IMG/VR virus record: IMGVR_UViG_3300021426_000063
Location: 128,001-192,000 of that record
Length of the DNA stretch: 64,000 bases
From: a virus
Lineage: Duplodnaviria; Caudoviricetes
Direction: 5' to 3' (one strand)
The position numbers were made by a program, and so were the translations under genes. Numbering within the stretch: the stretch's first letter is position 1; each line of letters opens with the position of its first letter. Under the pieces are notes generated by a model. The model searched no databases, was not told where the DNA came from, and saw only the letters and a list, made by a program, of their open reading frames with translations. Below are positions 1,984 to 52,600 of the stretch, one piece after another.

Positions 1984-2031
1984 TTATTTAATTTTTAAAT
2001 GTTCCAGAACGGAACGGTTAAACATACAATG

Positions 2032-2039
2032 TATTTATG
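2032..2039 (-). promoter_or_regulatory. Putative late promoter CATAAATA upstream of S1 gene
   Basis: Exact motif about 50 nt upstream of ATG 1983. Confidence 0.65.
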
Positions 2040-2043
2040 AAAA

Positions 2044-2871
2044 TTACTCTGCAACTTCTGGTGCTACTTCTTCCTGAGTTGATACCTGATGTTCTTCCTC
2101 TGGAATATCATTCTCACTGCGGTTGAACTCTTCCTCAACATTATTGAGGTCTGTACCAATCTGACGGGTTGCTGCATTGTCCTTCTGAATCTGACGGACT
2201 GCATCAGAAACTGACTGACCACAGTTGGCCCAGCACTCAAGGAAGGTTCTTGCCTCAAAGAATCCCTTACCATTGAAGTCCTCCATAATACATCTCCAAA
2301 GACTCAATACGCTTGCGGAACGAAGGATGATGACATTATCAAACTCCTTGGAGTTGACCCATGCCTTGTTCTCCTCCATATTACGAACAAGAACCATAAG
2401 ATTCACAGCACTCTTTGCAGTGAAGGATACATTATGGTTGAGATATTCAAGAAGCTGCTTAAACACCTTCTTACCCTTTGAAGGGTCAATAGGTTCATCT
2501 TCTTTTTCAGGTTTTGGTGCCATCTCAATATGATACTCCTTAACCGTATCATTCCTATAAGCATCCTCAAACTTCTTTGCCAATGCATCAAGAATTGGTT
2601 TGAGTTCTGACTGTTTATAAGAGAGTTCAGCAATCTTCTTTTCAGTTTCTTCAATCCTTGAATTGGTTGAATCAACATGACCCTTCTGGAGTTCATACTC
2701 ATTTGAACCTACACCAAAAACAGTCTCGGCATTTGCCAAGTCCTTCTGGTGTGCAACCAACTCTTCTTTAAGAGATACCAGTTCACCACGCTGTTTCTGT
2801 AACTCATTTACTCTTTCTACTGCTTCAGCAATCTGCTCATCAGTAATTACATTTTTTACTTCTTCTGCCAT
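2044..2871 (-). CDS. Hypothetical protein, N-terminal coiled coil
   Basis: 275-aa ORF with heptad-rich N-terminus, preceded by TTTGTTATTTTT motif (2905-2916). Confidence 0.75.
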   Translation of the reverse strand: MAEEVKNVITDEQIAEAVERVNELQKQRGELVSLKEELVAHQKDLANAETVFGVGSNEYELQKGHVDSTNSRIEETEKKIAELSYKQSELKPILDALAKKFEDAYRNDTVKEYHIEMAPKPEKEDEPIDPSKGKKVFKQLLEYLNHNVSFTAKSAVNLMVLVRNMEENKAWVNSKEFDNVIILRSASVLSLWRCIMEDFNGKGFFEARTFLECWANCGQSVSDAVRQIQKDNAATRQIGTDLNNVEEEFNRSENDIPEEEHQVSTQEEVAPEVAE

Positions 2872-2917
2872 TTTATTATTATTAAATGTTAAAAAACTTT
2901 CTATAAAAATAACAAAT

Positions 2918-3148
2918 TTATAAAGATTTTATTAAAGACTCTTTATCACTAAATAATTGTTCATTTTCACAAGATACTTCTCTTCCACAAATAAGAACAT
3001 AATACCTTTCAACAGTAACTATTTCTTCATAATTAAGGTTACTTATGAACTGTGCATAATAGATGGAATTTATCTCACTACTTACTACTTGGTTGTCATA
3101 CATCAACCAAACTACATCACCAATATTTCTATTTAATTTTATCTTCAT
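2918..3148 (-). CDS. Small hypothetical protein (SH3/KOW-like), paralog of next gene
   Basis: MKIKLNRNIGDVVW...QLFSDKESLIKSL. Confidence 0.7.
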   Translation of the reverse strand: MKIKLNRNIGDVVWLMYDNQVVSSEINSIYYAQFISNLNYEEIVTVERYYVLICGREVSCENEQLFSDKESLIKSL

Positions 3149-3149
3149 A

Positions 3150-3356
3150 TTATAATGATTTTAATAGTTCTTCTTTTGATGCAAACAACTTACTCTCATC
3201 AACATTATCATCCATATGATTGAGTTGATAAGTTACCTTTACATTATGGGTATTATCTACATTAATCTTATACATTGTGACAAGTTTCTGAACTACCTTA
3301 TTACCAGAAACAACCCATACAGTATCATTAAGATTGTATTTTGTTGAAATTTCCAT
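3150..3356 (-). CDS. Small hypothetical protein, paralog of previous gene
   Basis: MEISTKYNLNDTVW...KLFASKEELLKSL. Confidence 0.7.
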   Translation of the reverse strand: MEISTKYNLNDTVWVVSGNKVVQKLVTMYKINVDNTHNVKVTYQLNHMDDNVDESKLFASKEELLKSL

Positions 3357-3358
3357 AA

Positions 3359-3826
3359 TTAAAATAATGATTTTTCAGTTTCACTTTCTTTATTTGTATT
3401 CTTATCAACCAAGACCTTTTCCTTATTATTGAAGAAATTGGATTTGATAAGTTTAAGTGCATTATCCAATTCAGTCTTATTGATCGCATATGCTTCCTCA
3501 ACCTCCCGGATACCACACTCATTTATTTCCATATACTTGTTAAGAACATCATCTTCATAATATGTCCTGATTGTTTCCTTCTTCTTTTTCTGGTCAATCC
3601 TGGTTTTCAAGAAATTAGGAAGACCATTGAACCTCATTGCCAACATAGCAATAATCTCAGCATCCACCAATGGATCACTGTCAAGTCTATTGACAAGTTC
3701 ACACTGGACAGGAAACTGAGCACTGAAAAGTCTTCTTAACATATAAGAATACTTCCTCTTGTCTTCCTTTGATACTGCACCAGAATTACGATTACAATAG
3801 CAGTTCAGTACTTCATAAAGTTCCAT
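3359..3826 (-). CDS. Possible T4 gp62-like clamp-loader small subunit
   Basis: YSYMLRRLFS..FP...ELVN and basic patch followed by Y....IREVEEAY resemble the gp62 pattern; lies next to RNase H. Confidence 0.4.
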   Translation of the reverse strand: MELYEVLNCYCNRNSGAVSKEDKRKYSYMLRRLFSAQFPVQCELVNRLDSDPLVDAEIIAMLAMRFNGLPNFLKTRIDQKKKKETIRTYYEDDVLNKYMEINECGIREVEEAYAINKTELDNALKLIKSNFFNNKEKVLVDKNTNKESETEKSLF

Positions 3827-3830
3827 GATC

Positions 3831-5015
3831 TTAACCTTTAATAAAACTCATATCTCCATCATCCTTGACACCCTTCATCACATTACTCCTCATCTGGATA
3901 CTGGATTTGTAATCCTTGAACCTTGACTTGGAGAATAAGGTCTCCTTTGTAATCTTTGAAAGAATGGCGGGATTCTTTACACTTTCAATCTCAATATCAG
4001 TTCCCATATTGGTGATCACATCTTCCGGGATACTCTCACTGGTCAATGACACCAGGGAAGTATTGGTCTTTATGTTCTCAAACAACATCCTCCTGGTGAA
4101 CTCCTCATCATTTATCTTGGCAACATCATAGATGACATTACACAACATCTTGACGGTGTCTTCCTGACCATAGATATGATAATCAAACTCACATCCAAGT
4201 TTCTCCTTGAACTGATTATAAATCTTCTCAACAGTCTTCTCTCCAAGACCCTTTGCTCTTGTACTCTCTGTTGCTGCTTTATAATACACAGGGAAAATAT
4301 TGTCAGAGGTATCACCACCAACAATCTTCATAAACCTCACCTTTTCAGGATCCACCACTTCAACATCCATTCCTTCAATGAACCTTTCAAAAGGATCATT
4401 TTCAATGGAGATGGTGAAGTACTCATTAAAGAGATTCTCCTGGGTCACTTGACGGTTACTCAATTTCTTTATCTCCCTGTCCGATGCTTCTGACACCCAC
4501 AGTTTATTCTTCACAGGACCATACTGGATGATGTGTACACCATCTACACACTTCACCAGTTGGTTAAGGTCTCTATCCGTAGACAGTATCAGACTTGACT
4601 TACCCTCATTGAAAAGATAATCACTCCAGGCATAAATCAAATCATCACCCTCACTTCTTTCAACCTGACTTACCTTGACACCAATAGTTCTCAATGTATT
4701 TGCAAAATTACTGATGACAGTATTGAATCCATTCTTATCTATATCTTCCTGGACTTTCTTCCTGTTACCCTTGTATTCCTGTTGAAGGAGTAGATCCTTT
4801 CTCCAAGAATGACTGTCCATAATAAACACAACATCATTGATGACTGGATTCACCTGTTTGATAACAGCACAGAAATCAACCATCAACTTCTTTTCAAAGG
4901 TATCCATATCCTTCTGGGTAGACAAAATCTTTGATTTACCTCCCTGACGGAAAGTAGACCAAAGACTTCTGAAGAAGAAATTATGTCCATCTACAATTAA
5001 TGTAAACCTTTTCAT
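3831..5015 (-). CDS. rnh: T4 RNase H-like 5'-3' exonuclease/flap endonuclease
   Basis: PIN/FEN motifs LIVDGHN, SWRK...YKGNR, EGDDLI, STDRDLNQL, GDTSDNI. Confidence 0.9.
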   Translation of the reverse strand: MKRFTLIVDGHNFFFRSLWSTFRQGGKSKILSTQKDMDTFEKKLMVDFCAVIKQVNPVINDVVFIMDSHSWRKDLLLQQEYKGNRKKVQEDIDKNGFNTVISNFANTLRTIGVKVSQVERSEGDDLIYAWSDYLFNEGKSSLILSTDRDLNQLVKCVDGVHIIQYGPVKNKLWVSEASDREIKKLSNRQVTQENLFNEYFTISIENDPFERFIEGMDVEVVDPEKVRFMKIVGGDTSDNIFPVYYKAATESTRAKGLGEKTVEKIYNQFKEKLGCEFDYHIYGQEDTVKMLCNVIYDVAKINDEEFTRRMLFENIKTNTSLVSLTSESIPEDVITNMGTDIEIESVKNPAILSKITKETLFSKSRFKDYKSSIQMRSNVMKGVKDDGDMSFIKG

Positions 5016-33901: not shown

Positions 33902-34173
33902 GCTTTATAAACCCATTCATTTAAATACCAATCACCATATATACCCATCAGGTCTTTTCTTCCTGTCAATAACTTATATGTATCTTCCATCTGTTCTTTT
34001 GTTACAATTACATATTTATTGAGAGGCATTTCAATTCCAAGATACTGTGAAACCTCATCACAAAGTTCTTGTTTACTGAACCAAATCTCACTTCTTATAT
34101 AATCATAATGTACAACATAATCATCATCTACATAATTATTGATTATGTGATGGAGCATATAATCTACCTTCAT
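33898..34173 (-). CDS. Hypothetical protein
   Basis: 91 aa, directly after TTTGTTATTTTT motif (34179-34190). Confidence 0.65.
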   Translation of the reverse strand: MKVDYMLHHIINNYVDDDYVVHYDYIRSEIWFSKQELCDEVSQYLGIEMPLNKYVIVTKEQMEDTYKLLTGRKDLMGIYGDWYLNEWVYKA

Positions 34174-34221
34174 AATACAAAAATAACAAAAAAGGATGAC
34201 ATTTACAAGTCATCCTTTCAA

Positions 34222-34977
34222 TTAAAACAATTTTTCTGACAATTCACTTTGTAAATTCTTTATCCTCTCTTCTGCAATTTTATAATAATCTTCACTCATC
34301 TCAAACCCTATGAATCTCCTGTTTTCCATAATTGCGGCAACCGCAGTCGTACCACTGCCAATAAATGGATCCAGGATTACATCATCTTCATATGTGAATA
34401 ACCTGATACACCTCTTTGGTAATTCAACAGGATATGCAGCAGGATGACCTATCTTTTTCAGGTTCTCACAATTGAAACTCCACATACCATTACTCCAATC
34501 TATGAATTCTTTTTTCTCAATGGTTATCTTTCCCTTGTGAATGAGTTTTGGTGATTTACAAAATATCAATATATACTCAAAACATCTTGGAAAGGAAGGA
34601 GATGAAGGACTCATAAAACTTCCCCATGCACATCTGTTACTTGTTGTGTTCTTATTCCATATGATTATGGTGAGTATATGGAATCCTATTTCCTTTGCAA
34701 TTTGAATAAAATCAGAGTGTGTTGGTATTGAACCATTCTTTGTATCACCTATATTCACACACATCCTGCCATCATCTGTCAATACCCTGTATGATTCTGA
34801 AAAGATTTCTTTCATCCAATGAAGATAATCCTCATATGGTTTATTGTCTTTATACTCATCATAATCAAGACCTACATTATATGGTGGTGATGTTATGATA
34901 CAATGAATTGATTTGTCAGATATATCCTTCATACCTGTCAAACAATCCTCATTGTATATTTTGTTTAATTCTTTCAT
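34222..34977 (-). CDS. Beta-class N4C/N6A DNA methyltransferase (SPPY)
   Basis: TSPPY precedes HPA.YP and DPFIGSGTT; start re-called at ATG 34977. Confidence 0.92.
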   Translation of the reverse strand: MKELNKIYNEDCLTGMKDISDKSIHCIITSPPYNVGLDYDEYKDNKPYEDYLHWMKEIFSESYRVLTDDGRMCVNIGDTKNGSIPTHSDFIQIAKEIGFHILTIIIWNKNTTSNRCAWGSFMSPSSPSFPRCFEYILIFCKSPKLIHKGKITIEKKEFIDWSNGMWSFNCENLKKIGHPAAYPVELPKRCIRLFTYEDDVILDPFIGSGTTAVAAIMENRRFIGFEMSEDYYKIAEERIKNLQSELSEKLF

Positions 34978-35698
34978 TTGCAATATTGAAATAATTTACA
35001 TCTGTCTCAAAACCAATAAAATTTCTTCCAGTGTTCATACAAGCAATTGCAGTTGTACCTGAGCCAATACAGTTGTCAAGAATAACATCACCTTCATTGG
35101 AATAGGATTTTATCAACCACTCAATAAGTTCAACAGGTTTCTGTGTAGGATGAACCTGGTCCTGTCTCCTCCACTTCTGCTGGAACTCCAACACACTGTC
35201 AGGATATCTGTATCCATCATTGACACTGACCACTTCTTTCCTGTTGAATCCTATCTGGTGGTTATTGATGTCAACCTCTGAAATCTTATGGGTTCTCTTG
35301 TATGGTTTGCCTGGTTTCATCTGTGGGTTATAGACAGTTTTTTCACCATTCCTTGAAAAGATACTGATGTTCTCATGCTTGGCAATGGGCCTATACTTGG
35401 CACAAAAGGCAGAACCAGACTTTGACTTCTTCCAAATCAAATCATACTTGTACCATTTCAGATTACTCATCCTTAACATACTACTGAAAGGTTCTGTACC
35501 AAAGAGAATGATTGCACCATTGTCTTTGATAATTCTCTCATACTGTTCCCACAATTTATCAAAAGGAATGAGTATATCCCAGGCACAACTTGTCGACCCA
35601 TAAGGGGGATCACAGATAATACAATCCACAGACTTGTCAGGTATATCTCTCATACCAATAAGACAATCCTCATTATAAATCTTATTCAACTCCTTCAT
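34949..35698 (-). CDS. Beta-class N6A/N4C DNA methyltransferase (DPPY)
   Basis: CDPPY, HPTQKP, DNCIGSGTT; start re-called at ATG 35698 after TTTGTTATTTTT (35705-35716). Confidence 0.92.
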   Translation of the reverse strand: MKELNKIYNEDCLIGMRDIPDKSVDCIICDPPYGSTSCAWDILIPFDKLWEQYERIIKDNGAIILFGTEPFSSMLRMSNLKWYKYDLIWKKSKSGSAFCAKYRPIAKHENISIFSRNGEKTVYNPQMKPGKPYKRTHKISEVDINNHQIGFNRKEVVSVNDGYRYPDSVLEFQQKWRRQDQVHPTQKPVELIEWLIKSYSNEGDVILDNCIGSGTTAIACMNTGRNFIGFETDVNYFNIANERIKQNIQ

Positions 35699-35749
35699 AA
35701 CATTAAAAATAACAAAATTGGGGAGACTTAACCATCTCCCCAATTTCAT

Positions 35750-36232
35750 TTATAACTTTGAACTTATGTCCTCTCCTGTCTTTAAATCTATGATTCTCTG
35801 GTTTGAACTACCTCTGAATGCCAGTGATGTGTCTCTCTTTGTACAATCATACATCCCATCTACCAGAATGTCTGAAAGTTCAAGAATCTCCTTGAAGTGT
35901 TCCTTACAGTATTCATAAGTATATCCTGTATAAATCCACACATCCTTTGTGTTTCCAAACCTTTCTCTGAAATGTTGAAGAAGTTCCAGTACACCATCAG
36001 GACTGTCAAGTGGGTCACCACCACTCAATGTCAATCCCTTAATGTAAGGTTTATCTATCTCATTAAAGAGAACTTCTTCAACCTTTCCATTGTAAACCTT
36101 ACCAGAACTAAAACTCCAGGTCTTCCTGTTGTGGCACTGCTTACAATGATGGGTACAACCTGACACCCACAATGTAACCCTGCATCCTAAACCATTATTT
36201 ACATCAGATGCTGTGATACTTTCATATTTCAT
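35750..36232 (-). CDS. nrdG: Anaerobic ribonucleotide reductase activating enzyme (radical SAM)
   Basis: NG.G.RVTLWVSGCTHHCKQCHN (CxxxCxxC), GLTLSGGDP, FRGSSNQRII. Confidence 0.95.
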   Translation of the reverse strand: MKYESITASDVNNGLGCRVTLWVSGCTHHCKQCHNRKTWSFSSGKVYNGKVEEVLFNEIDKPYIKGLTLSGGDPLDSPDGVLELLQHFRERFGNTKDVWIYTGYTYEYCKEHFKEILELSDILVDGMYDCTKRDTSLAFRGSSNQRIIDLKTGEDISSKL

Positions 36233-38535
36233 TTTACAATAATTTCCTTATTATGTTTCACTCTATCCTTTACCTCATCCTGCTTTCCAAGATTGAATGC
36301 AGTCTTGTAATCGCCGGTAAGGTATCCTGTAACTCGGCGAAGTCTGTGGATATTTGTACTTCCACATCTTGGACAGTTCTCACCAATCTCACCCTGCCAA
36401 CCACAATCAACACAAAGGTCATTAGGAGTATTAACTGCAAAGTAAGGAATGTCCTTGTTCATTGCATAATTGACAATGGTTTCCAATGCTTCAATATTAT
36501 GAAGAACTGTTGAAGGAAGTTCAACATAAGTGATACAACCTGCTGAACTGTATCCTGTCAACTGTGACTCAATGTCAATTTTCTCAAATGGAGTTACCTT
36601 TTCCCATACAGGAACATGCATTGAATTAGTGAAGTATTCTCTATCAGATACATTCTCAATGACACCATACTTGTCACGGAATTTCTTGAGAGCAGTATAG
36701 CAAAGATTTTCAGCAGGTGTATAATAAACACCAAAGTTGAGACTGTATTTCTGTTTATACTCTGCACATCTGTCTTTAAATAACTGCTCAATCCTCTTTG
36801 CAAGTTCCATACCTTCATCAGTACATTGGTTCTTACCAATAAGGAGTTGAAGTGTCTCTGCAAGACCAAGCTGACCAATTACAATAGTACCATGCTTGAG
36901 TGCTGACCTGATACCTTCTTCTGGAATGTAACCTGCCATAGTGTGGTTAATGTACATAAAGTCTGCTGACTTTGGAGACTGTGAGCAGATCCACTCAAAT
37001 CTTTCAAGAAGCATATCCTTTGCCTCACCAATCTTCTTGTCAAGGAGTTTCATAAATTTCTCAACATCCCTGTCTGCTTCCATTGCAAGGGTAGGCATAA
37101 TGATGGTCACAGGGCAGATGTTACCTCTACCATCCTTCAACTGACCAAAACCATTGATGTCCCAACCATTGGCAGTACGACAACCCATTGTACTGAAATA
37201 AGTTCTTGGATCATTCCTGTCATAACCAGCATTACCTGACCAGTCTACATTGGCATAGTTAGGATAGAGCCTCTTTGCTGTTGACTGCAAGGCCATCTTG
37301 AACAAATCATAATTAGGAGTACCAGGTCTGTCATTGACACCCTTCATATACTGGAAGATACCACAAGGGAAGATAGGAGTCTTATGGAACTTACCAACAC
37401 CCTTGATTGAACCCTGGATGAGAGCCTTTGTAACAACCCTACCTTCTGCACTGGTACAAGTACCATAGTTGATGGAAGTGAAAGGAAGCTGATTACCACT
37501 TCTGGACTGTAAGGTGTTGAGGTTATGATACATACCTTCAACAGCCTGCTTTAACTCAATAAGAGTATTCTTCTTTGCACTCTGATAATAGACAGGATTA
37601 AGTTTCTCCTTGTTGTCAAAGAAGAAGTCTTCCCTGGTGAGACCCAATTTCTTGAGCATCTCATCCCTGTGTTCATCACACCAGTCATCAAACTTGTTTC
37701 TTGAAATGATGTACTTCTTTCCATCATCACCAATAATAGTCTCATCATAATCACTGAAAATCATTTCTTCAACATCCAGTTCAAGGAACTCTGGACAGTC
37801 TTCAAGACATCTCTGGATATAGTGTTTGAAGAATGATTTCTGAACATAAGGTACCATTGTCCAGTCAAGGTGTGTTGCTGATACACCACCAAACTGCTGA
37901 AGTGACTGTAACTGGAAGATGACTGCGACAAGCTGCATTGCAGTATTGATTGAGTTGGCAGGACGTACATCTGTCTGTCTTGTGTTGAATCCCTTTGAGA
38001 GTAAATCATCAAATGGAACAGAAAGACAGTTGTGCATACCTGCTGCATAGGAATCAAGGTCATGGATATAAATCTCATTGTTAATATGATTGTTCCTTGA
38101 CTTCCTTGACATACAATTCTTCAAAGCATAATCCTTCAAAACAAGTCTTGTAACCTCACCCATCTTACCACCAAATGATGATTCATCCACATTGGCATTC
38201 TGGTTCTTTACATCTGATGCTTTGATTGCTTTCTCAACCTCCTTCTCCTGCTTACTCTTCTCATCTCTCATTGCCTTGTGTTCTGCTCTATAAATGATGA
38301 AGTTTTTTGCAACACAAGGATAATACCTCATAAGATACTTTTCAAGTTTATCCTGGATGTCTTCCACATGCATTGATTCTTCCTCAATGTCATTCACCCA
38401 CCCCTTGATAAAATCATAAACCTCAACAGGTGTCTCCATCTCTTTTGATGCAAATGCCTTGTCAAGGACATTATAAATCTTCTCAATTCGGAAGTGGGCA
38501 GGTGTCCCATCTCTTTTTATTACTGTTTTAATCAT
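36229..38535 (-). CDS. nrdD: Class III anaerobic ribonucleoside-triphosphate reductase with ATP cone
   Basis: N-terminal VIKRDG ATP cone, IYIHDLD..NC, MGCRT, TPAE.L, YFTNS.H, CxxC...CxxC, RRVTGYL glycyl-radical motif. Confidence 0.96.
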   Translation of the reverse strand: MIKTVIKRDGTPAHFRIEKIYNVLDKAFASKEMETPVEVYDFIKGWVNDIEEESMHVEDIQDKLEKYLMRYYPCVAKNFIIYRAEHKAMRDEKSKQEKEVEKAIKASDVKNQNANVDESSFGGKMGEVTRLVLKDYALKNCMSRKSRNNHINNEIYIHDLDSYAAGMHNCLSVPFDDLLSKGFNTRQTDVRPANSINTAMQLVAVIFQLQSLQQFGGVSATHLDWTMVPYVQKSFFKHYIQRCLEDCPEFLELDVEEMIFSDYDETIIGDDGKKYIISRNKFDDWCDEHRDEMLKKLGLTREDFFFDNKEKLNPVYYQSAKKNTLIELKQAVEGMYHNLNTLQSRSGNQLPFTSINYGTCTSAEGRVVTKALIQGSIKGVGKFHKTPIFPCGIFQYMKGVNDRPGTPNYDLFKMALQSTAKRLYPNYANVDWSGNAGYDRNDPRTYFSTMGCRTANGWDINGFGQLKDGRGNICPVTIIMPTLAMEADRDVEKFMKLLDKKIGEAKDMLLERFEWICSQSPKSADFMYINHTMAGYIPEEGIRSALKHGTIVIGQLGLAETLQLLIGKNQCTDEGMELAKRIEQLFKDRCAEYKQKYSLNFGVYYTPAENLCYTALKKFRDKYGVIENVSDREYFTNSMHVPVWEKVTPFEKIDIESQLTGYSSAGCITYVELPSTVLHNIEALETIVNYAMNKDIPYFAVNTPNDLCVDCGWQGEIGENCPRCGSTNIHRLRRVTGYLTGDYKTAFNLGKQDEVKDRVKHNKEIIVK

Positions 38536-38558
38536 AAAAATACTTTTGTTATTATATC

Positions 38559-39218
38559 TTATTCACCACAGTTAAGTTGGTTAACTATGGTGTTTGTGTT
38601 CTCATCAACAGTGAAATAATTATGATAAACAGCAACTGTACCATTATAGACATCTTCTCTTCCAAGAAGTTCTACATTCTCAACAGTCTTGTACTCATAA
38701 TTATCAGAGGAAGTACAAACCTTTCCACATTTAACATTATAGAGATCTGCTTCATATCCATCCCTGGTGCAGATCTCTCTCTCATCCCAGACACACTCAA
38801 ACTCTTCACCAGATACTTCACATTTCTTAATTACTGTACCCTTCTTAGTTCCAGTGTATTCTGTAAACTGTTTATCCTTCTCATCAATATCAAAAGGAAG
38901 GATAACAGGATATTTAATAGACACAATCTTATATCCATCAAACAGATCGCCGGCAAATACATAACCATCATCTGTAAGGAACATATGATTGGCCGTTGCT
39001 TTTAGTACTGTACCATCAGTCAATGTGATTTTCACAAGTTCCACATTGTATCCTGACACCCTTGGATGGAACATTTTTGATACCTTGATGTTTCCATCTC
39101 CATCCAAACAATACACATTCACATCATCACCAGCATCAGCCAGTTCCTTGAAGGATTTGAACCCTTCAACAGTCCATACCTTGGTATCTCCTGTAACACA
39201 AGGATTTAGTTTATTCAT
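38559..39218 (-). CDS. Free-standing mini-intein (HINT) with 6-aa N-extein and 3-aa C-extein
   Basis: MNKLNP|CVTGDTKV (block A), ATANH (block B), VYNGTV..YHNY (block F), QLN|CGE stop (block G). Confidence 0.85.
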   Translation of the reverse strand: MNKLNPCVTGDTKVWTVEGFKSFKELADAGDDVNVYCLDGDGNIKVSKMFHPRVSGYNVELVKITLTDGTVLKATANHMFLTDDGYVFAGDLFDGYKIVSIKYPVILPFDIDEKDKQFTEYTGTKKGTVIKKCEVSGEEFECVWDEREICTRDGYEADLYNVKCGKVCTSSDNYEYKTVENVELLGREDVYNGTVAVYHNYFTVDENTNTIVNQLNCGE

Positions 39219-39239
39219 TTAAAAAAATTTAATAAAAAG

Positions 39240-39785
39240 TTAAACATTAAAACCAATATTCCTCGCTCGGTGGAATAATTTATTTATGTAATCATTTACT
39301 GATTTTTCATCCTCAAACCGGAGGTCATAAGTGCTGAAATCTTTAAAATCCTCTGTATCAGCAGCTATCCTCTTTTCATTGTCATCTCCAACCTTGTTTG
39401 TATATCTTTTTTCCAGTCTCTCCCTTCTAAGTTCAACAGGCATATCAAGGTAAATGATTGTAAATCTGTCTCTTAACTCTGGATATAATGTAAACACATC
39501 CTTCACATTGGCAGGTGAGAGAATGGCAACACTGGAGTTCATAAGTTCATCATAAGACACTCCATACCATCCTATACGATAGAAATTGACAGAGATAAAC
39601 TTTGCTCTGTCATCCATATCTTTAAATTCTTCTTCAGAGACAAAATGATATTCATCACCTGTCTCATTCTCTCTCTTCTCACGGGTAGTGTACTGCTTCA
39701 TAGGTTTATACCCAATCTCAACCAATTTCTTTAAGAACCAGTCCTTTCCAGATGCTCCTGGTCCGACAATGATATACTTACTCAT
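39240..39785 (-). CDS. gmk: Guanylate kinase-like nucleotide monophosphate kinase
   Basis: P-loop GPGASGKD, YTTR..R.NE....YHFVSEEEF, WYG. Confidence 0.85.
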   Translation of the reverse strand: MSKYIIVGPGASGKDWFLKKLVEIGYKPMKQYTTREKRENETGDEYHFVSEEEFKDMDDRAKFISVNFYRIGWYGVSYDELMNSSVAILSPANVKDVFTLYPELRDRFTIIYLDMPVELRRERLEKRYTNKVGDDNEKRIAADTEDFKDFSTYDLRFEDEKSVNDYINKLFHRARNIGFNV

Positions 39786-39942
39786 CTAATAGTTTATTAA
39801 AGTTCTCAATCAGGTTTCCTTTGAGGTTGTTTTCCCATTCCTCATTGGTCATAGGAAGATATACAACATCTCCATCACTCATATGAATTGCTGCTTCTTC
39901 TTTAACAGCATTATATGTCACTCTATAAATCTTACCTTTCAT
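39778..39942 (-). CDS. Small hypothetical protein (54 aa; not in ORF track)
   Basis: MKGKIYRVTYNAVKEEAAIHMSDGDVVYLPMTNEEWENNLKGNLIENFNKLLDE; follows TTTGTTATTTTT (39949-39960) and overlaps the gmk start. Confidence 0.6.
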   Translation of the reverse strand: MKGKIYRVTYNAVKEEAAIHMSDGDVVYLPMTNEEWENNLKGNLIENFNKLLDE

Positions 39943-39983
39943 ATATGAAAAAATAACAAAAAAAGGAGATGATTACTCATCTC

Positions 39984-40505
39984 CTATTCAAAAATATCTG
40001 TTTGAATTTTATTCTCATCAAACAAACCAAAGAACCTTAACAGTTTTTGTTTCCTTGTCAATGTATTTTCTGTGATATATGGATTGTCAATACCATCCAG
40101 AGTTTCATCCAGAGGTTCATATCTATATTCCCTGGACCACCCATCATTATGTTCCCATAGAGTCTCACACCTGGTTATCTTTGCAAGTCTTCCACCACTA
40201 TACATATTACCTATAAATATCAGGTCTCCAACTTCAAGATCATTCCTTCCAAAGTAATACCCTTCATCCTGTTCATTACAAAAGAATGTAACTTTCCTGT
40301 TCTTTCTATCTACCCAACCATCATTACACCTGTATGCTTTGACGTTCATCTCCATAAGTTTGTTATGGAATTCCTTCATTTCCCTTTTCATCTTTGCATC
40401 AATTTCAAGGAATGTAGGAAGAAATCTGGAATCATGTATTTCAATGGATCCACCACCAGGAATGCCAAATTTCTCTTTTATTAAGTATTCATCTGGAATT
40501 GACAT
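39984..40505 (-). CDS. Hypothetical protein
   Basis: 173 aa, followed by hairpin AGGAGATGA-ttac-TCATCTCCT. Confidence 0.7.
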   Translation of the reverse strand: MSIPDEYLIKEKFGIPGGGSIEIHDSRFLPTFLEIDAKMKREMKEFHNKLMEMNVKAYRCNDGWVDRKNRKVTFFCNEQDEGYYFGRNDLEVGDLIFIGNMYSGGRLAKITRCETLWEHNDGWSREYRYEPLDETLDGIDNPYITENTLTRKQKLLRFFGLFDENKIQTDIFE

Positions 40506-40588
40506 ATCTCATTATTTATTAAAGAATTATGTTGAAAAAATCAATAGTGATCAAATGGCCCGTTTGTATATTATTAAATATAATACAT

Positions 40589-40768
40589 TTAAAATCCCAG
40601 AACTGAAACCAGGAGATAAATCAAACCATAGATTAAAGAAAAGATAATAAGAAACCTAATAATAGAATATAACAGACTGATTATAAACATTATAAGTTTC
40701 CATATCATAGGTATCAGAATAATAAGACCTACAATAGAAAATATCACTATGATAATAGTAAACAACAT
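40589..40768 (-). CDS. Small hydrophobic membrane protein (59 aa; not in ORF track)
   Basis: MLFTIIIVIFSIVGLIILIPMIWKLIMFIISLLYSIIRFLIIFSLIYGLIYLLVSVLGF; packed between neighbouring genes. Confidence 0.55.
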   Translation of the reverse strand: MLFTIIIVIFSIVGLIILIPMIWKLIMFIISLLYSIIRFLIIFSLIYGLIYLLVSVLGF

Positions 40769-40771
40769 AAC

Positions 40772-40891
40772 TTACTTCTTTACATCACTAACAGGTTCTT
40801 CTGTTTTGAGTTTCTTCAAGATGTCTTTCTTTTTATGTTTGGTTCTTTTGAAAGACCATCCACCATTTCTTGTTTTGATAATCTTAAACAT
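40772..40891 (-). CDS. Small basic protein (39 aa; not in ORF track)
   Basis: MFKIIKTRNGGWSFKRTKHKKKDILKKLKTEEPVSDVKK; fills the gap in the early operon. Confidence 0.5.
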   Translation of the reverse strand: MFKIIKTRNGGWSFKRTKHKKKDILKKLKTEEPVSDVKK

Positions 40892-40897
40892 AATCTC

Positions 40898-41098
40898 TTA
40901 CATTACAGCAACATAATCACCAGTCATAAAGGCAGAATCATAATAGACTCTTTCAATCTCATCTGCAAAGGGGAATCCAGACTTGGGATAGACAGTTGTC
41001 AGAACCATATCCCTCTTTTCATCAATCCCTCTTACTTCAAAGTGGTCGATGTTACTGGAGAAAGTAGGTTTAAATTTAAATCCGATTTTGTACTTCAT
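40898..41098 (-). CDS. Small hypothetical early protein
   Basis: Start re-called at ATG 41098 (MKYKIGF) downstream of a host-type promoter. Confidence 0.6.
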   Translation of the reverse strand: MKYKIGFKFKPTFSSNIDHFEVRGIDEKRDMVLTTVYPKSGFPFADEIERVYYDSAFMTGDYVAVM

Positions 41099-41124
41099 AT
41101 TATTTTGTAATTTGTTTTCTATTA

Positions 41125-41156
41125 CAAAGATAATATATTTTTTTGAAATATCCAAA
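41125..41156 (-). promoter_or_regulatory. Bacteroidota-type (early) promoter
   Basis: TTTG-N20-TATCTTTG. Confidence 0.75.
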
Positions 41157-41202
41157 TTTAATTTAATCTCATAAATAATTTATAGTATTAAACTGTATTT
41201 TT

Positions 41203-43458
41203 ATGGATAGATTAGAAAACATCAAAAAGTTTGATGAATATATGAATGTCCTCAATGAAGACCTTATTCATGGTGAACAAAAAGATTGTGATAGAGCATT
41301 CATAAGAAGTACTCCAATAATTGACTTTGGTAATGGTGATAAGGTTAAAGCAATTGAAATTGTCAATGCTGTACATGAAGCAACCAGATTATTGGAAGTT
41401 AATCATGGTAGGACATATGAATTTGCAGAGAATACATTGAACATCATTTATCTTGCACATAGTAATAAGATTAAAACTATGGCAGTTGATAAATATATGA
41501 ATCTTTATATGAATGCAGGTTTCATTTATCATAATTTGAAAATGGACCCAGAACTTATAGGTGCAGTAATTATGCATGAGGCTCTTCATGCTCTTTATGA
41601 CCATATTGACAGAAGTATAAACTGGTTGTCTGCAAAAGGAAAACCAAAGACACCAAGTAATTGGCATGATACTAATCTTGCTGCTGATGTTGAGGTGAAC
41701 AGAACATTAACCCGTATTGGAGTTATAGAAGAAGATAGACTTATTAATGAGATACATGGTTTGTATCTTAAACAGTTGGATAGATCAACTGGTGTTGTAC
41801 CTCTTGAAATGATACTTGATAATGAAGAGTATATGCAGAAATTGAGGGAGATGTGTCCTCCTGATCCAGATCCAACGAAGATGCCTTCTACTCCTGAAAC
41901 TGAAATTGAAACAACAGAAGATTGGGATAATGGATACAAAGATGCCTGGAATAAGGTTGCTGAACTTATTAGAAAGTATGGTGCCAAAGGTGCCTGGGAG
42001 AAACTTATGGATGCTGGTGTTGTGAATGGTGTTGGTGAAATCTATACTAATAAAGAGATAGATGATATTATGGGACTTGAGTTTTTAACTGTCAAGTCTA
42101 TGGAGGATTTTATAAATGAAGACCTTAAAGTTGAACCATCAGATAAAGGAAAAACATATAAAGATGGATTTATGAATGCTTTTGGTAAGTTGGTGAATGC
42201 ACTTTATACATCCATTAATCCACCAGATGATTGGGATGATGAAGGAAGTGATGGTCCAGAACCTTCAGGTGGAAAAAAGTTTAAATCAAAGATGAAGAAG
42301 GATGAACTTGATCCAATTAATTTACCACAACCAAAAGGAAAAAAGAAAAAGAAGAAAGATTCAGATGATGATGGTGTGCCTGAAAATATAAATGGTGGTT
42401 ATGATGATAATGAACTTGAAAATGATATAGACAAGAAGACTAATGGAGGTGAGAATAAGATTACAACAAAACAAGATGTTGAGTTTGGTGGAAGAAAAGG
42501 TGTTGGAGGTACAGGTTCATTCCAGGAGGAAGGTTTGTCAGATGATGAATTGAAGAATTCAGGATATAGCACAGAAGACCTTGAAAAGGTTAATAAGGTA
42601 AGAGAGAATAATAAATTCAAAAATACAAAGGCTGGTATTGAGAAAAAGATTGAAAGGATGAAGAGAAATCTTCCTCCAGGTCATCCTATTAAGAAGACTC
42701 TTGATGCAATTGAAGTTGAGGCCAGTAAGTATAGGAATATCTGGAAAAAGATTCTTAAAGAATTTATGGCCCAGAAAACAAGAAGGGCAGGAACTGATAA
42801 ATCAACTGGACACAATGACTGGATAAGAAAGAAGTCAATTGCCAGGGGAGAATATGGTATACATCATCAGAAGACTGCACAGGATCCACAGGATGTGAAT
42901 ATATATGTTGATGTATCTGGTTCAATGGATGCTGAACTTCTTGAAATCATTGCAAAATCATTGGTCATCTATACACAACAATGGAAATATTCTGGAATAA
43001 ATGTTTGTCCTTGGGCATCTTATAGTGGAGGTGTACATAATGTTGGAGACTTCTATAAGAAAACCGAAGCACAGGTTACAAAGGAAATCCTTGATATTAT
43101 AGATGAAGGTAAATATAAATGTGGTGGAGGTACATCAGGAGATGCTGCCATAGATTCAATGGTTGATTCTGTTGTTGAAACATTGAGTGATTCTAAAAAG
43201 AAGAAGAAAGATGATATCCATGTTGTGATTACTGATGGCTATTTTGATTTTGAAAATATTGAAAACAGAATCAAACAAGCACTTAAATCTGAGATTAATA
43301 GAGATGATGTTGCAGCAAAAGCACCAAAGAATACAATATGGATGATATATAATGACACTGGTGATTTTAGTGAGTCATTTAAAGATGGATGGAATAATGA
43401 GATTAAAGAAGGTAGAATCATTTTTATTAACTCAAATGTAGTTAAGAATAATGGATAA
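41203..43458 (+). CDS. Metallopeptidase (DUF2201-like) + acidic linker + VWA domain protein
   Basis: TMAVD, HEALH, N.AAD.EVN; MIDAS DVSGSM, GGGT, VITDG; CATAAATA at 41170-41177. Confidence 0.85.
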   Translation: MDRLENIKKFDEYMNVLNEDLIHGEQKDCDRAFIRSTPIIDFGNGDKVKAIEIVNAVHEATRLLEVNHGRTYEFAENTLNIIYLAHSNKIKTMAVDKYMNLYMNAGFIYHNLKMDPELIGAVIMHEALHALYDHIDRSINWLSAKGKPKTPSNWHDTNLAADVEVNRTLTRIGVIEEDRLINEIHGLYLKQLDRSTGVVPLEMILDNEEYMQKLREMCPPDPDPTKMPSTPETEIETTEDWDNGYKDAWNKVAELIRKYGAKGAWEKLMDAGVVNGVGEIYTNKEIDDIMGLEFLTVKSMEDFINEDLKVEPSDKGKTYKDGFMNAFGKLVNALYTSINPPDDWDDEGSDGPEPSGGKKFKSKMKKDELDPINLPQPKGKKKKKKDSDDDGVPENINGGYDDNELENDIDKKTNGGENKITTKQDVEFGGRKGVGGTGSFQEEGLSDDELKNSGYSTEDLEKVNKVRENNKFKNTKAGIEKKIERMKRNLPPGHPIKKTLDAIEVEASKYRNIWKKILKEFMAQKTRRAGTDKSTGHNDWIRKKSIARGEYGIHHQKTAQDPQDVNIYVDVSGSMDAELLEIIAKSLVIYTQQWKYSGINVCPWASYSGGVHNVGDFYKKTEAQVTKEILDIIDEGKYKCGGGTSGDAAIDSMVDSVVETLSDSKKKKKDDIHVVITDGYFDFENIENRIKQALKSEINRDDVAAKAPKNTIWMIYNDTGDFSESFKDGWNNEIKEGRIIFINSNVVKNNG

Positions 43459-47473: not shown

Positions 47474-47708
47474 AAACTGAATCATAAATGTCCTGGAGAC
47501 TAAACTGACCATACTTGGAATGAAGTTCAGACATCATTCCATCTTCTTTCTCTTTGATTGATTTCAAGGTTTTTTCAAGTTCAATGACCTTATCTTGAAT
47601 CTCTTCTGCTTTCTTTTGATATACAAACAGTTCTTCAGAGACATTCCTGTACTCTTCAACAATGTCTCTGATTTCTTTTGATTCCTGTTCTGTGAAGTTA
47701 ATCTTCAT
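47442..47708 (-). CDS. Small coiled-coil protein
   Basis: 88 aa, heptad pattern ending ...L..KYG. Confidence 0.65.
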   Translation of the reverse strand: MKINFTEQESKEIRDIVEEYRNVSEELFVYQKKAEEIQDKVIELEKTLKSIKEKEDGMMSELHSKYGQFSLQDIYDSVYDDRFREYNH

Positions 47709-47970
47709 CTTTTACAATCTTTGCAAAAACAAATCCTTCCTTTATACAATCATATTTTACACCATCTATCTTGATTGGTGTTGACCTGCCAATAGGTTTT
47801 ACAATGATGTCACCTTCTTTGAGTATTGAACCATCATATACTTTCAACACCCTGGCAAATCTGTTGTATTGTTCATCTGGTATATATAAACCAGATTTAG
47901 TTATATTCTCATTCTTTATGTCCTGGATGAGTATATAACCATTCTTCATTTCTATTGGTATGTTATTCAT
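47698..47970 (-). CDS. GroES-like co-chaperonin
   Basis: Mobile loop TKSGLYIP, LKEGD.IV, IKIDG.KY..I.E..V.AKI. Confidence 0.75.
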   Translation of the reverse strand: MNNIPIEMKNGYILIQDIKNENITKSGLYIPDEQYNRFARVLKVYDGSILKEGDIIVKPIGRSTPIKIDGVKYDCIKEGFVFAKIVKDED

Positions 47971-48126
47971 ATTGTAAATATAACAAAAGACAATAACTTC
48001 TAAAAAAACATAATTTATTAATTGAAAAATATGTATTGAAAGTCCTAATATATTAGATATGTTGTTTTATAAAGATACTTATTTGTACTATTGTACATAA
48101 ATATTATATAAAAAAGTAAAGTTTAT

Positions 48127-48669
48127 ATGAATTATTATATAGCATTGGAGATGGTAGGATATTCATCTGTGAGTAGTTTCTTGAGTAGTCTTGGTGAAAA
48201 ACCAACATATGGTACTTGTGAAGATTTTTCAGATCCTTTTAATAGTTATACACCTGATAGCCAATTTCACAGTAGAAATACTGGTTCTAGTACTGGTCAA
48301 TGGTATCCATCTCCAAAATCCTATAGTGGAACAACATATGCATTATATAGAATTGATGGATATGAATTAGATAATTTTGATATAGGAACTCTTGCTGCCC
48401 GAGATGATATTCATAGTTCTCTTTGGTTATATGTGAATGATAGTGGTGCAAGTGGTGATCAGATAGTATATCTCAATAAATATGTTGCACCAACTTTAAC
48501 ATCTATATCAATTAAGATTGGAGGTTCATATGTGTCATCAAGTACAAGTATAAAGGTAGGTGAACAAAAGGAAATACAAATAATTGGAAATTACAGTAAT
48601 GGTGAGACTAGGAATATCACTACTTCTGCATCATTGACACGTAGTAATACAAATATAAGTATTGTATAA
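48127..48669 (+). CDS. Unique domain + N-terminal part of a Big_2 Ig-like domain (candidate fibre tip A)
   Basis: C-terminus TLTSISIKIGG...SIKVGEQKEIQIIGNYSNGETRNITTSASLTRSNTNISIV*; own CATAAATA (48096-48103) and terminator. Confidence 0.75.
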   Translation: MNYYIALEMVGYSSVSSFLSSLGEKPTYGTCEDFSDPFNSYTPDSQFHSRNTGSSTGQWYPSPKSYSGTTYALYRIDGYELDNFDIGTLAARDDIHSSLWLYVNDSGASGDQIVYLNKYVAPTLTSISIKIGGSYVSSSTSIKVGEQKEIQIIGNYSNGETRNITTSASLTRSNTNISIV

Positions 48670-48673
48670 ATTA

Positions 48674-48702
48674 AGGACTTCTTTTTAGAAGTCTTTTTTT
48701 TT
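48674..48702 (+). terminator. Intrinsic terminator
   Basis: GACTTCT-tttt-AGAAGTC followed by a T9 run. Confidence 0.85.
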
Positions 48703-48767
48703 ATCCAGAAAATTCCAAATGATATTGCATAAATAACATATATTTAATAATTAGATTGTTTAGAGTT

Positions 48768-49274
48768 ATGGCAGCAGGAAGTGTTATTTGTGTTGAATCA
48801 AGTACAAGTTATATAAATACATTCAGAAATTCATATGGCAGTAATTTGACAGTGTATAATGGTGATGCTATAATTTATAATGTACCTACTAATGAATGGA
48901 TAAAAATTAAAACATTTAATAATAAATATTATGCTTGTGCTTATGTTGGTAGATTTGTAGGATCTTCAGCAAATTTAAATGTTATAAATTCTGGGTCTAA
49001 TACACCTAAAAAATGGGTATATGATACAAGTACAAGTATAGTTGACCCAGATTTTCAGGGAGGTATGACAATTACAGCATATTTATTAAAAGAATATGTC
49101 CCTGCTGTTACATCTATTTCAGTTACAGTAGGAGGTTCATCTGGAAGTACATCAGTTAAGGTAGATGAGCAAAAGGAGATTGTGGTTACAGCAAATTATG
49201 ATGATGGTTCTACTTCTACTGTAACACATAGTGCAACATTGACACCTAGTAATTCAAATATAAGTATTGTATAA
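48768..49274 (+). CDS. Unique domain + N-terminal part of a Big_2 Ig-like domain (candidate fibre tip B)
   Basis: C-terminus AVTSISVTVGG...SVKVDEQKEIVVTANYDDGSTSTVTHSATLTPSNSNISIV*; own CATAAATA (48728-48735) and terminator; start re-called at ATG 48768. Confidence 0.75.
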   Translation: MAAGSVICVESSTSYINTFRNSYGSNLTVYNGDAIIYNVPTNEWIKIKTFNNKYYACAYVGRFVGSSANLNVINSGSNTPKKWVYDTSTSIVDPDFQGGMTITAYLLKEYVPAVTSISVTVGGSSGSTSVKVDEQKEIVVTANYDDGSTSTVTHSATLTPSNSNISIV

Positions 49275-49296
49275 AAATCTTAATTATAATATATAT

Positions 49297-49330
49297 AAAT
49301 GACCTGTCTTATTTGACTGGTCATTTTTTT
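49297..49330 (+). terminator. Intrinsic terminator
   Basis: AAATGACC..GTC-loop-GAC..GGTCATTT followed by a T run. Confidence 0.75.
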
Positions 49331-49375
49331 ATTTCCCATAAATAACTTATATGAAAATAACATAAGTATATAGAT

Positions 49376-49597
49376 ATGGAAAATGACATTCAAACAATTT
49401 CCTATATCAATTTGGGAGATGGTCAGGAACACCCAATAGATGCTGTTTCAGTTGGTGGAAAACTTGGTGAAAATATCCAGGTGACCAATAATCTTGTTAC
49501 ATCTGTGAATTCAAGTTCATCAGATACACAATATCCATCTGCAAAATGTGTATATACATTGATAGGTGATATAGAAACTCTTTTGAGTAATATTTAA
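49376..49597 (+). CDS. Small fibre-associated protein
   Basis: 73 aa with SSDTQYPSAKCVY, a motif seen in phage fibre proteins; first gene after CATAAATA (49337-49344). Confidence 0.65.
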   Translation: MENDIQTISYINLGDGQEHPIDAVSVGGKLGENIQVTNNLVTSVNSSSSDTQYPSAKCVYTLIGDIETLLSNI

Positions 49598-49614
49598 AAA
49601 AAATGATTTAATTT

Positions 49615-52600
49615 ATGGCAAAATATGTAAAGGGTTTAAATGCTGGTTCCTCAACATTGACTGCAACATATTCAGGTAAAACTGCTAGTATTAATATAAC
49701 AGTTAATAAGGGTGCTGGAACTTTAGGTAGTGCTGATGCATTATCTGACCATGAATATCGTACAGGTCCACATACATATACATTAACAGTTACAGGAGCA
49801 TCAGGAAGTGTATCATTTAACACAAGTTCATCATATTTAACTGTTACAAAAGATGGAAGTTCTTATAATAAATCTGGATGGTCAGTTACATCTACTGGAG
49901 GTCTTGCAACTGCTGCTTCAATAAATGCTGGTACATATACAGTTAAGTGTTATGTTACATCTGCTGCAACCACTAATTATAATTCAGTATCTGGATATTT
50001 AACTTGGACATTTAAAATTACAAAAGCCACACCAACCTGTTCAATATCAATACCTGATTATACATATGGTGGAACAAAATCTAATTATAATTTCTCTGCT
50101 AATATGGGTGTTGGAAGTGTTGATGTATATCTTAACTCAACCAATTCAACATCTGGTGGAACATTGTGGGGTAATGCAACATCTACAACATTGAATGCTG
50201 GTACAAGATATATATATGCAATTGTTGGTGCTGGAACAAATACAAATGCAGTTACTGTTGGACCAACTGCTTTTACAATCAGTAAAGCTAGTCAGTCTGC
50301 TCCAACTGCATCAGGTAATTCAAGTACATATTCAACATCTGGTTCAATTAGTGGTAGTGCATCAGGAGGTGGAGGTGTTGGTACACTTTATTATAAGGCA
50401 GATACATCAGGTGGAACAAGTTATGGTACAGCTGCAACATCTGTATCAAGGTCAAGGTCTTCTGTTGGTACAACAACCTTTGTTGCTTACTGGAGTGGTA
50501 ATGATAACTATAATGCATCACCAAATTCAAATCAAGCAAGTCTTGTTATTGGTAAAGCAGATCAGTCTGCTCCAACAGCATATGGAGATACAAAATCATA
50601 TGGTTCAACAGCAACTGCAACAACATCTGGTGGTGGCGGTCAGGGTTCTATTGAATGGTCTAATGGTAGTACAAGAACAGATGTTGGTTCACAGACAACA
50701 AAAGCAAGATGGTCTGGTAACAGTAATTATAATGCATCAGGTTGGTCTAATGAGGTAACACTTAAAATCAACAAAGCAGATCAGTCTGCTCCAACACCAA
50801 AAGGATCATCAAGTACTTATTCATCATCTGGTTCAATTAGTGGTAGTGCATCAGGAGGTGGAGGTCATGGTTCACTTTATTATAAGGTTGATACATCAGG
50901 TGGAACCAGTTATGGTTCTGCAACAACTACTGCACCTTCAAGAAATAGGAACTCTGTTGGTACAACCACTTTTGTTGCTTACTGGGGTGGTGATGGTAAC
51001 TATAATGCATCACCTAATTCAAGTCAGGCAAGTCTTGTTATTGATAGAGCAGGTCAGCCTGCTCCAACTGCAACAGGTTCATCAGTAACATATCCTAATA
51101 CTGCAACTGCATCATATTCAGGTGGTGGAGGTGTTGGTACGCTTACTTGGACAAATGGTAGTTCAAGATCTGCAATTGGTTCACAGACAACAAAGGCATA
51201 TTGGAGTGGTAATGGTAATTATTATGCTTCTGGATATTCTAATGAAGTAACACTTTCTGTATCTAAATATACACCAACCATTTCTTTGTCTGCAACAGAT
51301 AGGATATATAATGGTAATGCCCTTTATGCAACAGCAACAGTATCTGTTCCTTCTGGTGGTAAAACTATGAAAGGTACTATTTATTATGGTACATCTTCTG
51401 GTTCAACATCATATAGTGTATCCTATAGTGGTTCTGCTGTATCATTGAGTTCAGTGAGTGTAACTAACTATAATAGTGGTTCTGGTAATTCAGTAACTGT
51501 ATTTGCTTACTTTGTACCTGACAGTACTTGTAATGATGTATATAATAGTTCAGGCAATGCAAGTAAGACTATGACCATTACTGGTCCTACAAGTCAGTCT
51601 GCTCCAACAGCAACAGGTGCTTCTTCTCAATATGCAACATCTGGTTCAATTAGTGGTAGTGCATCAGGTGGTGGTGGGCATGGTACACTTTATTATAAGG
51701 CAGATACTAATGGAGGAACAAGTTATGGTTCTGCTGCAACATCTGTATCAAGGTCAAAGAGTTCTTTGGGTACAACAACCTTTGTTGCTTACTGGGGTGG
51801 TGATGGTAACTATAATGCATCAGGTAATTCTAACCAGGCAAGTCTTACTGTTGTAAAGGCAGATCAATCTGCTCCAACAGCAACCGGTTCATCAGTAACT
51901 TATCCTAGTACTGCAACTGCTTCTGCATCTGGTGGAGGCGGTCAGGGTTCTATTGAGTGGTATAATGGTAGTTCAAGGTCTGCCATTGGTTCACAGACAA
52001 CAAAGGCAAGATGGTCTGGAAATACATATTATAATGCATCTGGATATTCTATTGAGGTAACTCTTTCAGTTGCAAAATATACACCAACTGTTACATTGTC
52101 TGCAACAGATAGAGCATACAATGGTAATGCTTTATATGCATCAGCAACAGTATCTGTACCATCAGGAGGTAAGACAATGAAAGGTACAATATACTATGGT
52201 ACATCTTCTGGTTCAACATCATATAGTGTATCATATAGTGGTTCTTCTGTATCATTGAGTTCAGTAAGTGTAACTAATGTTGGTTCAGCAACAGTATATG
52301 CTTACTTTGTACCTGACAGTACTTGTAATGATGTATACAATAGTTCAGGTAATGTAAGTAAGACATTTACTGTTAGAAAGGCTGATCAGGATGCTCCAAC
52401 AGCAACTGGTTCATCAGTTACTTATCCTAGTACTGCTACTGCTTCCGCTTCAGGTGGAGGTGGTCAGGGTTCTATTGAATGGTATAATGGTTCATCAAGA
52501 AGTTCTGTTGGTTCACAGACAACAAAAGCAAGATGGTCTGGTAACAGTAATTATAATGCATCAGGTTATTCTAATGAAGTAACTCTTTCAGTTGCTAAAT

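Follow-up and report, generated by a model that had tools for sequence, protein, structure and literature searches.

Background

Mini-inteins of the NrdJ type interrupt ribonucleotide reductases (RNR) of 800–1900 aa at the site NP|CGE, and the function of these enzymes enforces splicing. Inteins in general are usually seen as parasites that persist through the need to restore an essential host protein. It has long been asked whether an intein can have any function of its own.

The HINT fold serves self-cleavage, not host-protein repair, in the Hedgehog HINT and bacterial intein-like (BIL) domains; these process larger functional proteins of which they form an internal or terminal part. The yeast HO endonuclease is an intein-derived gene without a host protein. 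This former intein now stands alone, and selection maintains it for use by the organism itself; it has retained a working LAGLIDADG nuclease, added zinc fingers and lost splicing. HO can also be traced as an intein-derived, host-less gene through reference 61 as cited in PMC5784728.

Stand-alone Intein_splicing proteins have also been reported from the Jug jumbo phages of gut Bacteroidota, which have genomes of about 360–402 kb with nrdD and nrdG among their core genes (PMC12880540). That 2026 paper places the stand-alone genes within gene fragmentation and describes neither a host-less RNR intein nor selection on one (PMC12880540). Its 26 Intein_splicing proteins may belong to the family studied here (PMC12880540). 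Our literature search turned up no account of host-less inteins with their junctions retained.

Here we investigate an intein gene in a 64,000-nucleotide stretch of phage DNA (the window), which belongs to a 233-kb IMG/VR record with a CheckV completeness of 62%. The intein is homologous to the NP|CGE mini-inteins of RNR (NrdJ; P0122, P0126 and L011), with 32–45% identity. It has the junctions and the block A, B, F and G residues of the NrdJ-site inteins, including the missing penultimate His, which is likewise absent from the RNR-embedded relatives described below, and it carries a ribbon insert at the same position. In contrast to the NrdJ-site inteins, it has no RNR around it, its exteins are 6 and 3 residues long, and its ribbon is without two of the four Cys; a long stem branch lies between them. 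Like HO, the gene is a former intein that now stands alone, but unlike HO it has no nuclease and has kept every splicing residue and both junctions. It differs from the Hedgehog and BIL domains in having only a few residues to process, and both sequence and tree group it with true inteins. HO is the closest precedent in concept, by analogy, and the gene would work most like a domesticated HINT protein. Is this gene, then, a decaying fossil? Or, has the intein been kept for what it does itself?

Results

The stand-alone intein gene

The ORF is on the minus strand at 38559–39218 and encodes 219 aa followed by a stop codon. It matches Pfam Intein_splicing at 36.6 bits (cut-off 35.8) and the intein N-terminal region TIGR01445 at 43.7 bits (cut-off 24.5). 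An N-extein remnant of 6 aa (39201–39218) ends in Asn-Pro, and this N(-2) and P(-1) are kept in nearly all family members. The intein proper is a mini-intein of 210 aa at 38571–39200, at the coordinates and with the splicing residues proposed in a sequence-only reading of this locus, to which the minus strand is to be added. Its N-terminal HINT half (residues 7–100; 38919–39200) contains Cys1, which is residue 7 of the ORF (39198–39200), and the block B motif T75-x-x-H78 (38985–38996). An insert (residues 101–178; 38685–38918) occupies the usual endonuclease position. The C-terminal HINT half (residues 179–216; 38571–38684) contains block F, read as VYNGTV..HNYF, block G and the terminal Asn216 (38571–38573). 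The C-extein remnant, Cys-Gly-Glu (38562–38570), begins with the +1 Cys217 and is followed by the stop codon (38559–38561).

An AlphaFold2 model of the protein, built with 40 sequences, has a pLDDT of 87.8 and a pTM of 0.86. The best Foldseek matches to this model are the solved mini-inteins DnaE, DnaB, RecA and NrdJ-1, with TM scores on the target of 0.75–0.86; the BIL structures 2lwy and 6y75 rank 29 and 40. The ORF has the fold of a class 1 intein or HINT protein, as well as Cys1, TxxH, block F, the terminal Asn and the +1 Cys. Its exteins of 6 and 3 residues do not amount to a host protein in which it lies in frame and which splicing would restore. Nor is it a split intein: it is contiguous, and extein parts were not found elsewhere. 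By descent and residues the gene is an RNR-site class 1 mini-intein, yet without the defining residence in a host protein.

A word-indexed search returned 219 near-length homologues. The best 120 of these 219 are 212–243 aa long (nearly all 219–221), 74–97% identical and located on contigs of up to 412 kb. An exhaustive phmmer search adds P0151 (53%) and P0154 (47%), which also have a short N-extein and a terminal Cys-Gly-Glu. The stand-alone architecture that was to be looked for in homologues is therefore common to more than 200 protein clusters, with identity down to 47%. Because it recurs with an intact frame in these clusters from many independent assemblies, misassembly or a split RNR was rejected as its origin. 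Across 122 sequences, identity is at least 99% at Cys1, H78, the block F residues and the three C-extein residues, and at least 90% at T75 and Asn216. CGE directly before the stop codon is shared by about 116 of 120 clusters; apart from N(-2) and P(-1), the N-extein varies in sequence among family members. Among GenBank phage records no family member was found, only distant terminase inteins, and P0151 and P0154 as queries recovered nothing from IMG/VR beyond known loci or one RNR-embedded intein.

Relationship to RNR inteins

All 30 of the homologues longer than 385 aa are ribonucleotide reductases; the class II-typical TSCPD domain is present in most of them, and Asn-Pro precedes the intein in every one. 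At 76 of 80 IMG/VR loci the intein lies within an RNR at NP|C...N|CGE; the metagenome loci outside the family with mapped intein boundaries are also RNR ORFs with these junctions. More than 100 relatives are embedded in RNR ORFs at NP|C...N|CGE, in agreement with the proposal that the flanks of the stand-alone gene represent the thiyl-Cys site of class I/II RNR. Maximum-likelihood analysis of 70 inteins groups the 18 stand-alone genes in a single clade (SH-aLRT 99) among the RNR inteins, and the stem of this clade is long (1.18 changes per site). Judged by sequence, these results show that the gene comes from a mini-intein that occupied the thiyl-Cys site (NP|CGE) in a ribonucleotide reductase of class II type.

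It had been proposed that the host RNR was lost, with nrdA or nrdJ to be sought elsewhere in the genome. PF02867 matches neither the window's record nor any of four related records, of which two are 94% complete (344 and 411 kb). The class II-specific PF21995 and PF17975 have no match in the four records searched. The full RNR P0144 has no extein match in these four records, where it matches through its intein only. No class I/II RNR sequence was found in the five records, consistent with the proposed loss, and the profile and extein searches show the class II-type reductase to be absent from this phage clade as far as the records searched extend.

The insert

The core of the insert (residues 123–160; 38739–38852, minus strand) contains the invariant C133, C142, R147, E148 and C150 and has ribbon homology. 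In the RNR-embedded relatives the insert aligns with a four-Cys ribbon, CxxCG..F..RE..(F/Y)CSxxC. The embedded L045 has this ribbon beside an HNH-like segment, and HNH_3 is found in other embedded relatives. The window's clade has Ser/Thr and Gly in place of the second and fourth ribbon Cys and has gained a Cys, C142; CxxC plus C.C/H is retained in the deep orphans P0151, P0154 and P0166. The insert is descended, on this alignment, from the four-Cys zinc ribbon of the embedded relatives, and the window's protein no longer has the CxxC ... CxxC arrangement of such a ribbon. That a Cys-rich insert stands in place of the endonuclease is thus correct as to position, but not as to novelty, the insert being a remodelled ribbon of RNR-embedded relatives. 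The set of Cys first assigned to it has to be reduced: C133, C142 and C150 alone are family-wide, and the window's C164 and C168 vary.

A Pfam search at E up to 0.1 found no nuclease family, LAGLIDADG or HNH, in the ORF, and the insert aligned to nothing but the ribbon of relatives. Pfam searches on the ribbon inserts of relatives gave sub-threshold zinc-ribbon or treble-clef matches only, and an ESM Atlas search with the insert recovered no clusters from outside the family, and the scores were at most 0.8. Folded alone, the insert is predicted with a pLDDT of 54; within the whole protein it reaches 83–92 and is well predicted to about residue 150. This better prediction within the whole protein suggests that the insert packs on the HINT fold.

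One cluster of the truncated subclade described below, P0153 (155 aa), is without the whole insert, the join lying between two Asp-Gly-Tyr repeats. The loss is apparently a deletion between these two short repeats, or it could be an assembly artefact.

Members that cannot splice

Four loci, L096, L098, L099 (on the same contig as L005) and L100, have an 8-codon insertion between Asn-Pro and Cys1. In all four the stop codon comes directly after the terminal residue, so that the +1 Cys is absent; this residue is Asn, replaced by Asp in L100. A readable relic of the C-extein codons lies beyond the stop. To judge from these residues, the truncated-subclade proteins cannot splice. They keep Cys1 and TxxH, and omega within the subclade is 0.06 and 0.14. 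Since purifying selection also acts on a subclade without splicing, what is selected is most likely the intein body and not the ligated 9-mer; the peptide MNKLNPCGE, put forward as a splicing product, is unlikely to be the relevant one when a C-extein is missing from one subclade. Retention of the junctions and of the stop-codon position in the main clade is most simply explained by continued selection for junction chemistry.

A more distant phage, L176, has a guanylate-kinase-like (gmk-like) gene, 61% identical, that is directly followed by nrdD without an intein (4526–4588). The 10 nt after its gmk stop codon, GGTGAATGAT, are the same as the C-extein relic past the stop in L096. This junction may be a secondary loss or a look-alike site from before insertion. 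Because L176 has the gmk-like gene and then nrdD without an intein, the intein gene is, on this gene order, not universally required.

Selection

Pairwise NG86 estimates of omega for the intein gene are 0.05–0.18 at dS of 0.1–1. Across the same genome pairs, omega is 0.06–0.16 for the intein gene, 0.06–0.19 for the gmk-like gene and 0.02–0.16 for nrdD. The deficit of non-synonymous changes in six independent pairs has a binomial p of 1e-10 to 1e-17, and the intein gene and its neighbours have dS values of similar magnitude. These substitution patterns show purifying selection on the intein gene as strong as on its neighbours. The alternatives offered by the sequence-only reading, a domesticated intein or a fossil, were to be separated by dN/dS; the value of about 0.1, matching the flanking genes, supports the former, and together with the intact frame in more than 200 clusters it refutes the latter.

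The ribbon-derived core of the insert (residues 123–160) is the most constrained segment, with an omega of 0.074. It is followed by the C-terminal HINT half (residues 179–216; 0.079), the N-terminal HINT half (residues 8–100; 0.148) and the linker (residues 101–122; 0.30). In codons 1–7 (39198–39218) dS is 0.09 versus 0.4–0.9 elsewhere, and the C-terminal end (38559–38573) is also still. The C-extein codons TGT GGT GAA are nearly invariant, with Gly as GGT wherever a locus keeps the C-extein. Because synonymous sites are unusually still at both ends, part of the junction conservation may be at the DNA or RNA level.

Genomic setting

The gene was described as lying directly upstream of nrdD and nrdG, which is the case. 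All of the genes concerned are on the minus strand. The gmk-like gene (39240–39785) ends 21 nt upstream of the intein ORF, and nrdD, a class III RNR with an ATP cone (36229–38535), starts 23 nt downstream; both are constant neighbours. The nrdG activase gene (35750–36232) is 3' of nrdD. A terminator-like hairpin with a 17-bp stem just past nrdG (35711–35750) closes the predicted transcription unit. At its other end, ahead of the 54-aa ORF that opens the unit, the stretch 39943–39985 comprises the terminator-like hairpin of the preceding gene, placed at 39964–39985, and then a TTTGTTAT-type motif, a candidate promoter of the predicted unit. On the minus strand, the hairpin of this stretch immediately precedes TTTGTTATTTT and the start of the 54-aa ORF.

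No terminator-like site was found between the gmk-like gene, the intein gene, nrdD and nrdG, and hairpins are present only at both ends of the unit; a single transcription unit containing these four genes is therefore likely. Metatranscriptome contigs from four runs gave two small pieces on the ORF, which are possibly DNA carry-over. A search for Rfam introns or other RNA families around the ORF (34000–42000, E up to 1) gave no match.

The order gmk-like, intein, nrdD is found in every examined locus with enough flank, even where the type of nrdD differs. In L094 (1112–3316) and L101 (3696–4316) the nrdD after the intein is of another type, with another N-terminus, and the gmk-like and intein genes are retained; this suggests that nrdD has been exchanged as a cassette. 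In L090, from human gut, a GIY-YIG-type ORF (2189–3010) splits nrdD (1478–4448) after about 166 codons. A GIY-YIG-split nrdD is likewise described for the Jug phages (PMC12880540).

Discussion

Exaptation of a host-less intein is well supported, and retained autoprocessing is likely from the residues kept. Together with the autoprocessing and deoxynucleotide-supply steps that we infer, we hold this to be the probable account of the gene. The selected product would be the HINT fold with the remodelled ribbon packed against it. Main-clade precursors, that of the window's gene among them, would still process themselves: an N–S acyl shift at Pro6–Cys7, then transfer to Cys217 and cyclisation of Asn216, would release the 210-aa protein and a 9-residue by-product. 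Where the stop comes right after Asn, as in the truncated subclade, N-terminal cleavage alone would be possible. The conserved junction residues could instead have structural or metal-binding roles. Because the gene is probably co-transcribed with the gmk-like gene, nrdD and nrdG, it probably acts in or on deoxynucleotide supply, in a binding or regulatory capacity. This is the weakest step, with gene order alone as its link. The sequence-only reading had named a metal or redox sensor, a protein ligase and an RNR decoy as candidate functions.

Could the chemistry itself have become the function? The protein may be a conditional switch, with redox- or metal-responsive self-processing that controls how the freed HINT-ribbon protein acts on the anaerobic dNTP operon, or a binder of the NPCGE-coding DNA in class II RNR genes of hosts or rivals. 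We regard this as unlikely, but if true this would be the first natural intein with chemistry selected for itself and not for the rescue of a host protein. A related special case of exaptation, a nuclease-free DNA-binding protein made from the DNA-recognition parts of a homing endonuclease (the HINT surface and the zinc ribbon), appears distinctly doubtful. Its target would be either the old homing site, NPCGE-coding DNA in the RNR genes of the host or of rival phages, or a new operator. RNR-embedded relatives have the ribbon, next to an HNH-like segment in the case of L045, and other embedded relatives carry HNH_3; the ribbon-derived core is the most constrained part of the orphan, and the ribbon gets a confident model only when it packs on the HINT fold (pLDDT of 83–92 versus 54 alone). 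However, two of the four zinc ligands have been lost in this clade and Pfam detects no DNA-binding family in the ORF.

The remaining explanations deny a role to the intein body. A selfish or mobile cassette, homing through a nuclease supplied in trans or ectopically into a look-alike site, would bring the phage no benefit. The empty site in L176, where GGTGAATGAT past the gmk stop matches the relic in L096, fits such a cassette, as does the abundance of homing endonucleases in these phages reported in PMC12880540. It is nevertheless improbable: no nuclease domain is present, all members have one fixed gene position, dS is of the same order as in the neighbours, and amino-acid selection equals that on real enzymes, a pressure that would not act on a passenger without a nuclease. 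There is still less to be said for the spliced 9-residue peptide, or an N-extein thioester transferable to another molecule, as the relevant product, which we consider very improbable. Conservation of residues -2/-1 and +1 to +3 extends to members of 47% identity, and about 116 of 120 clusters have the stop next to CGE, as this would have it, but the truncated subclade has no C-extein and an altered N-extein and remains under purifying selection, the N-extein sequence varies, and the constraint is mostly inside the intein. Only the odd architecture speaks for a decaying fossil or an assembly artefact, which is scarcely credible and already contradicted by the data: omega is about 0.1 (p < 1e-10), the frame is intact in more than 200 clusters from independent assemblies, and there are no RNR fragments in the genomes searched. 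The decaying fossil was accordingly rejected.

Exaptation of the host-less intein bears on how inteins are viewed. Since the host protein is gone, selection on the gene must act on the intein itself. Because selection keeps the gene as tightly as the neighbouring enzyme genes, the former parasite is probably now working for the phage. Strong selection across a wide clade of jumbo phages of animal guts, splice junctions included, makes this a clean natural system in which to ask what an intein does for its carrier. A compact intein that naturally tolerates minimal exteins may also be of interest to protein engineers.

The same phage contains a second, canonical intein with a LAGLIDADG-type insert, outside the window (L166, 496–2865; G000:C1, approximately 47658–50027). 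Its host is a DNA cytosine-5 methyltransferase, which it interrupts at the catalytic Pro-Cys motif (GFP|C ... HN|CQD).
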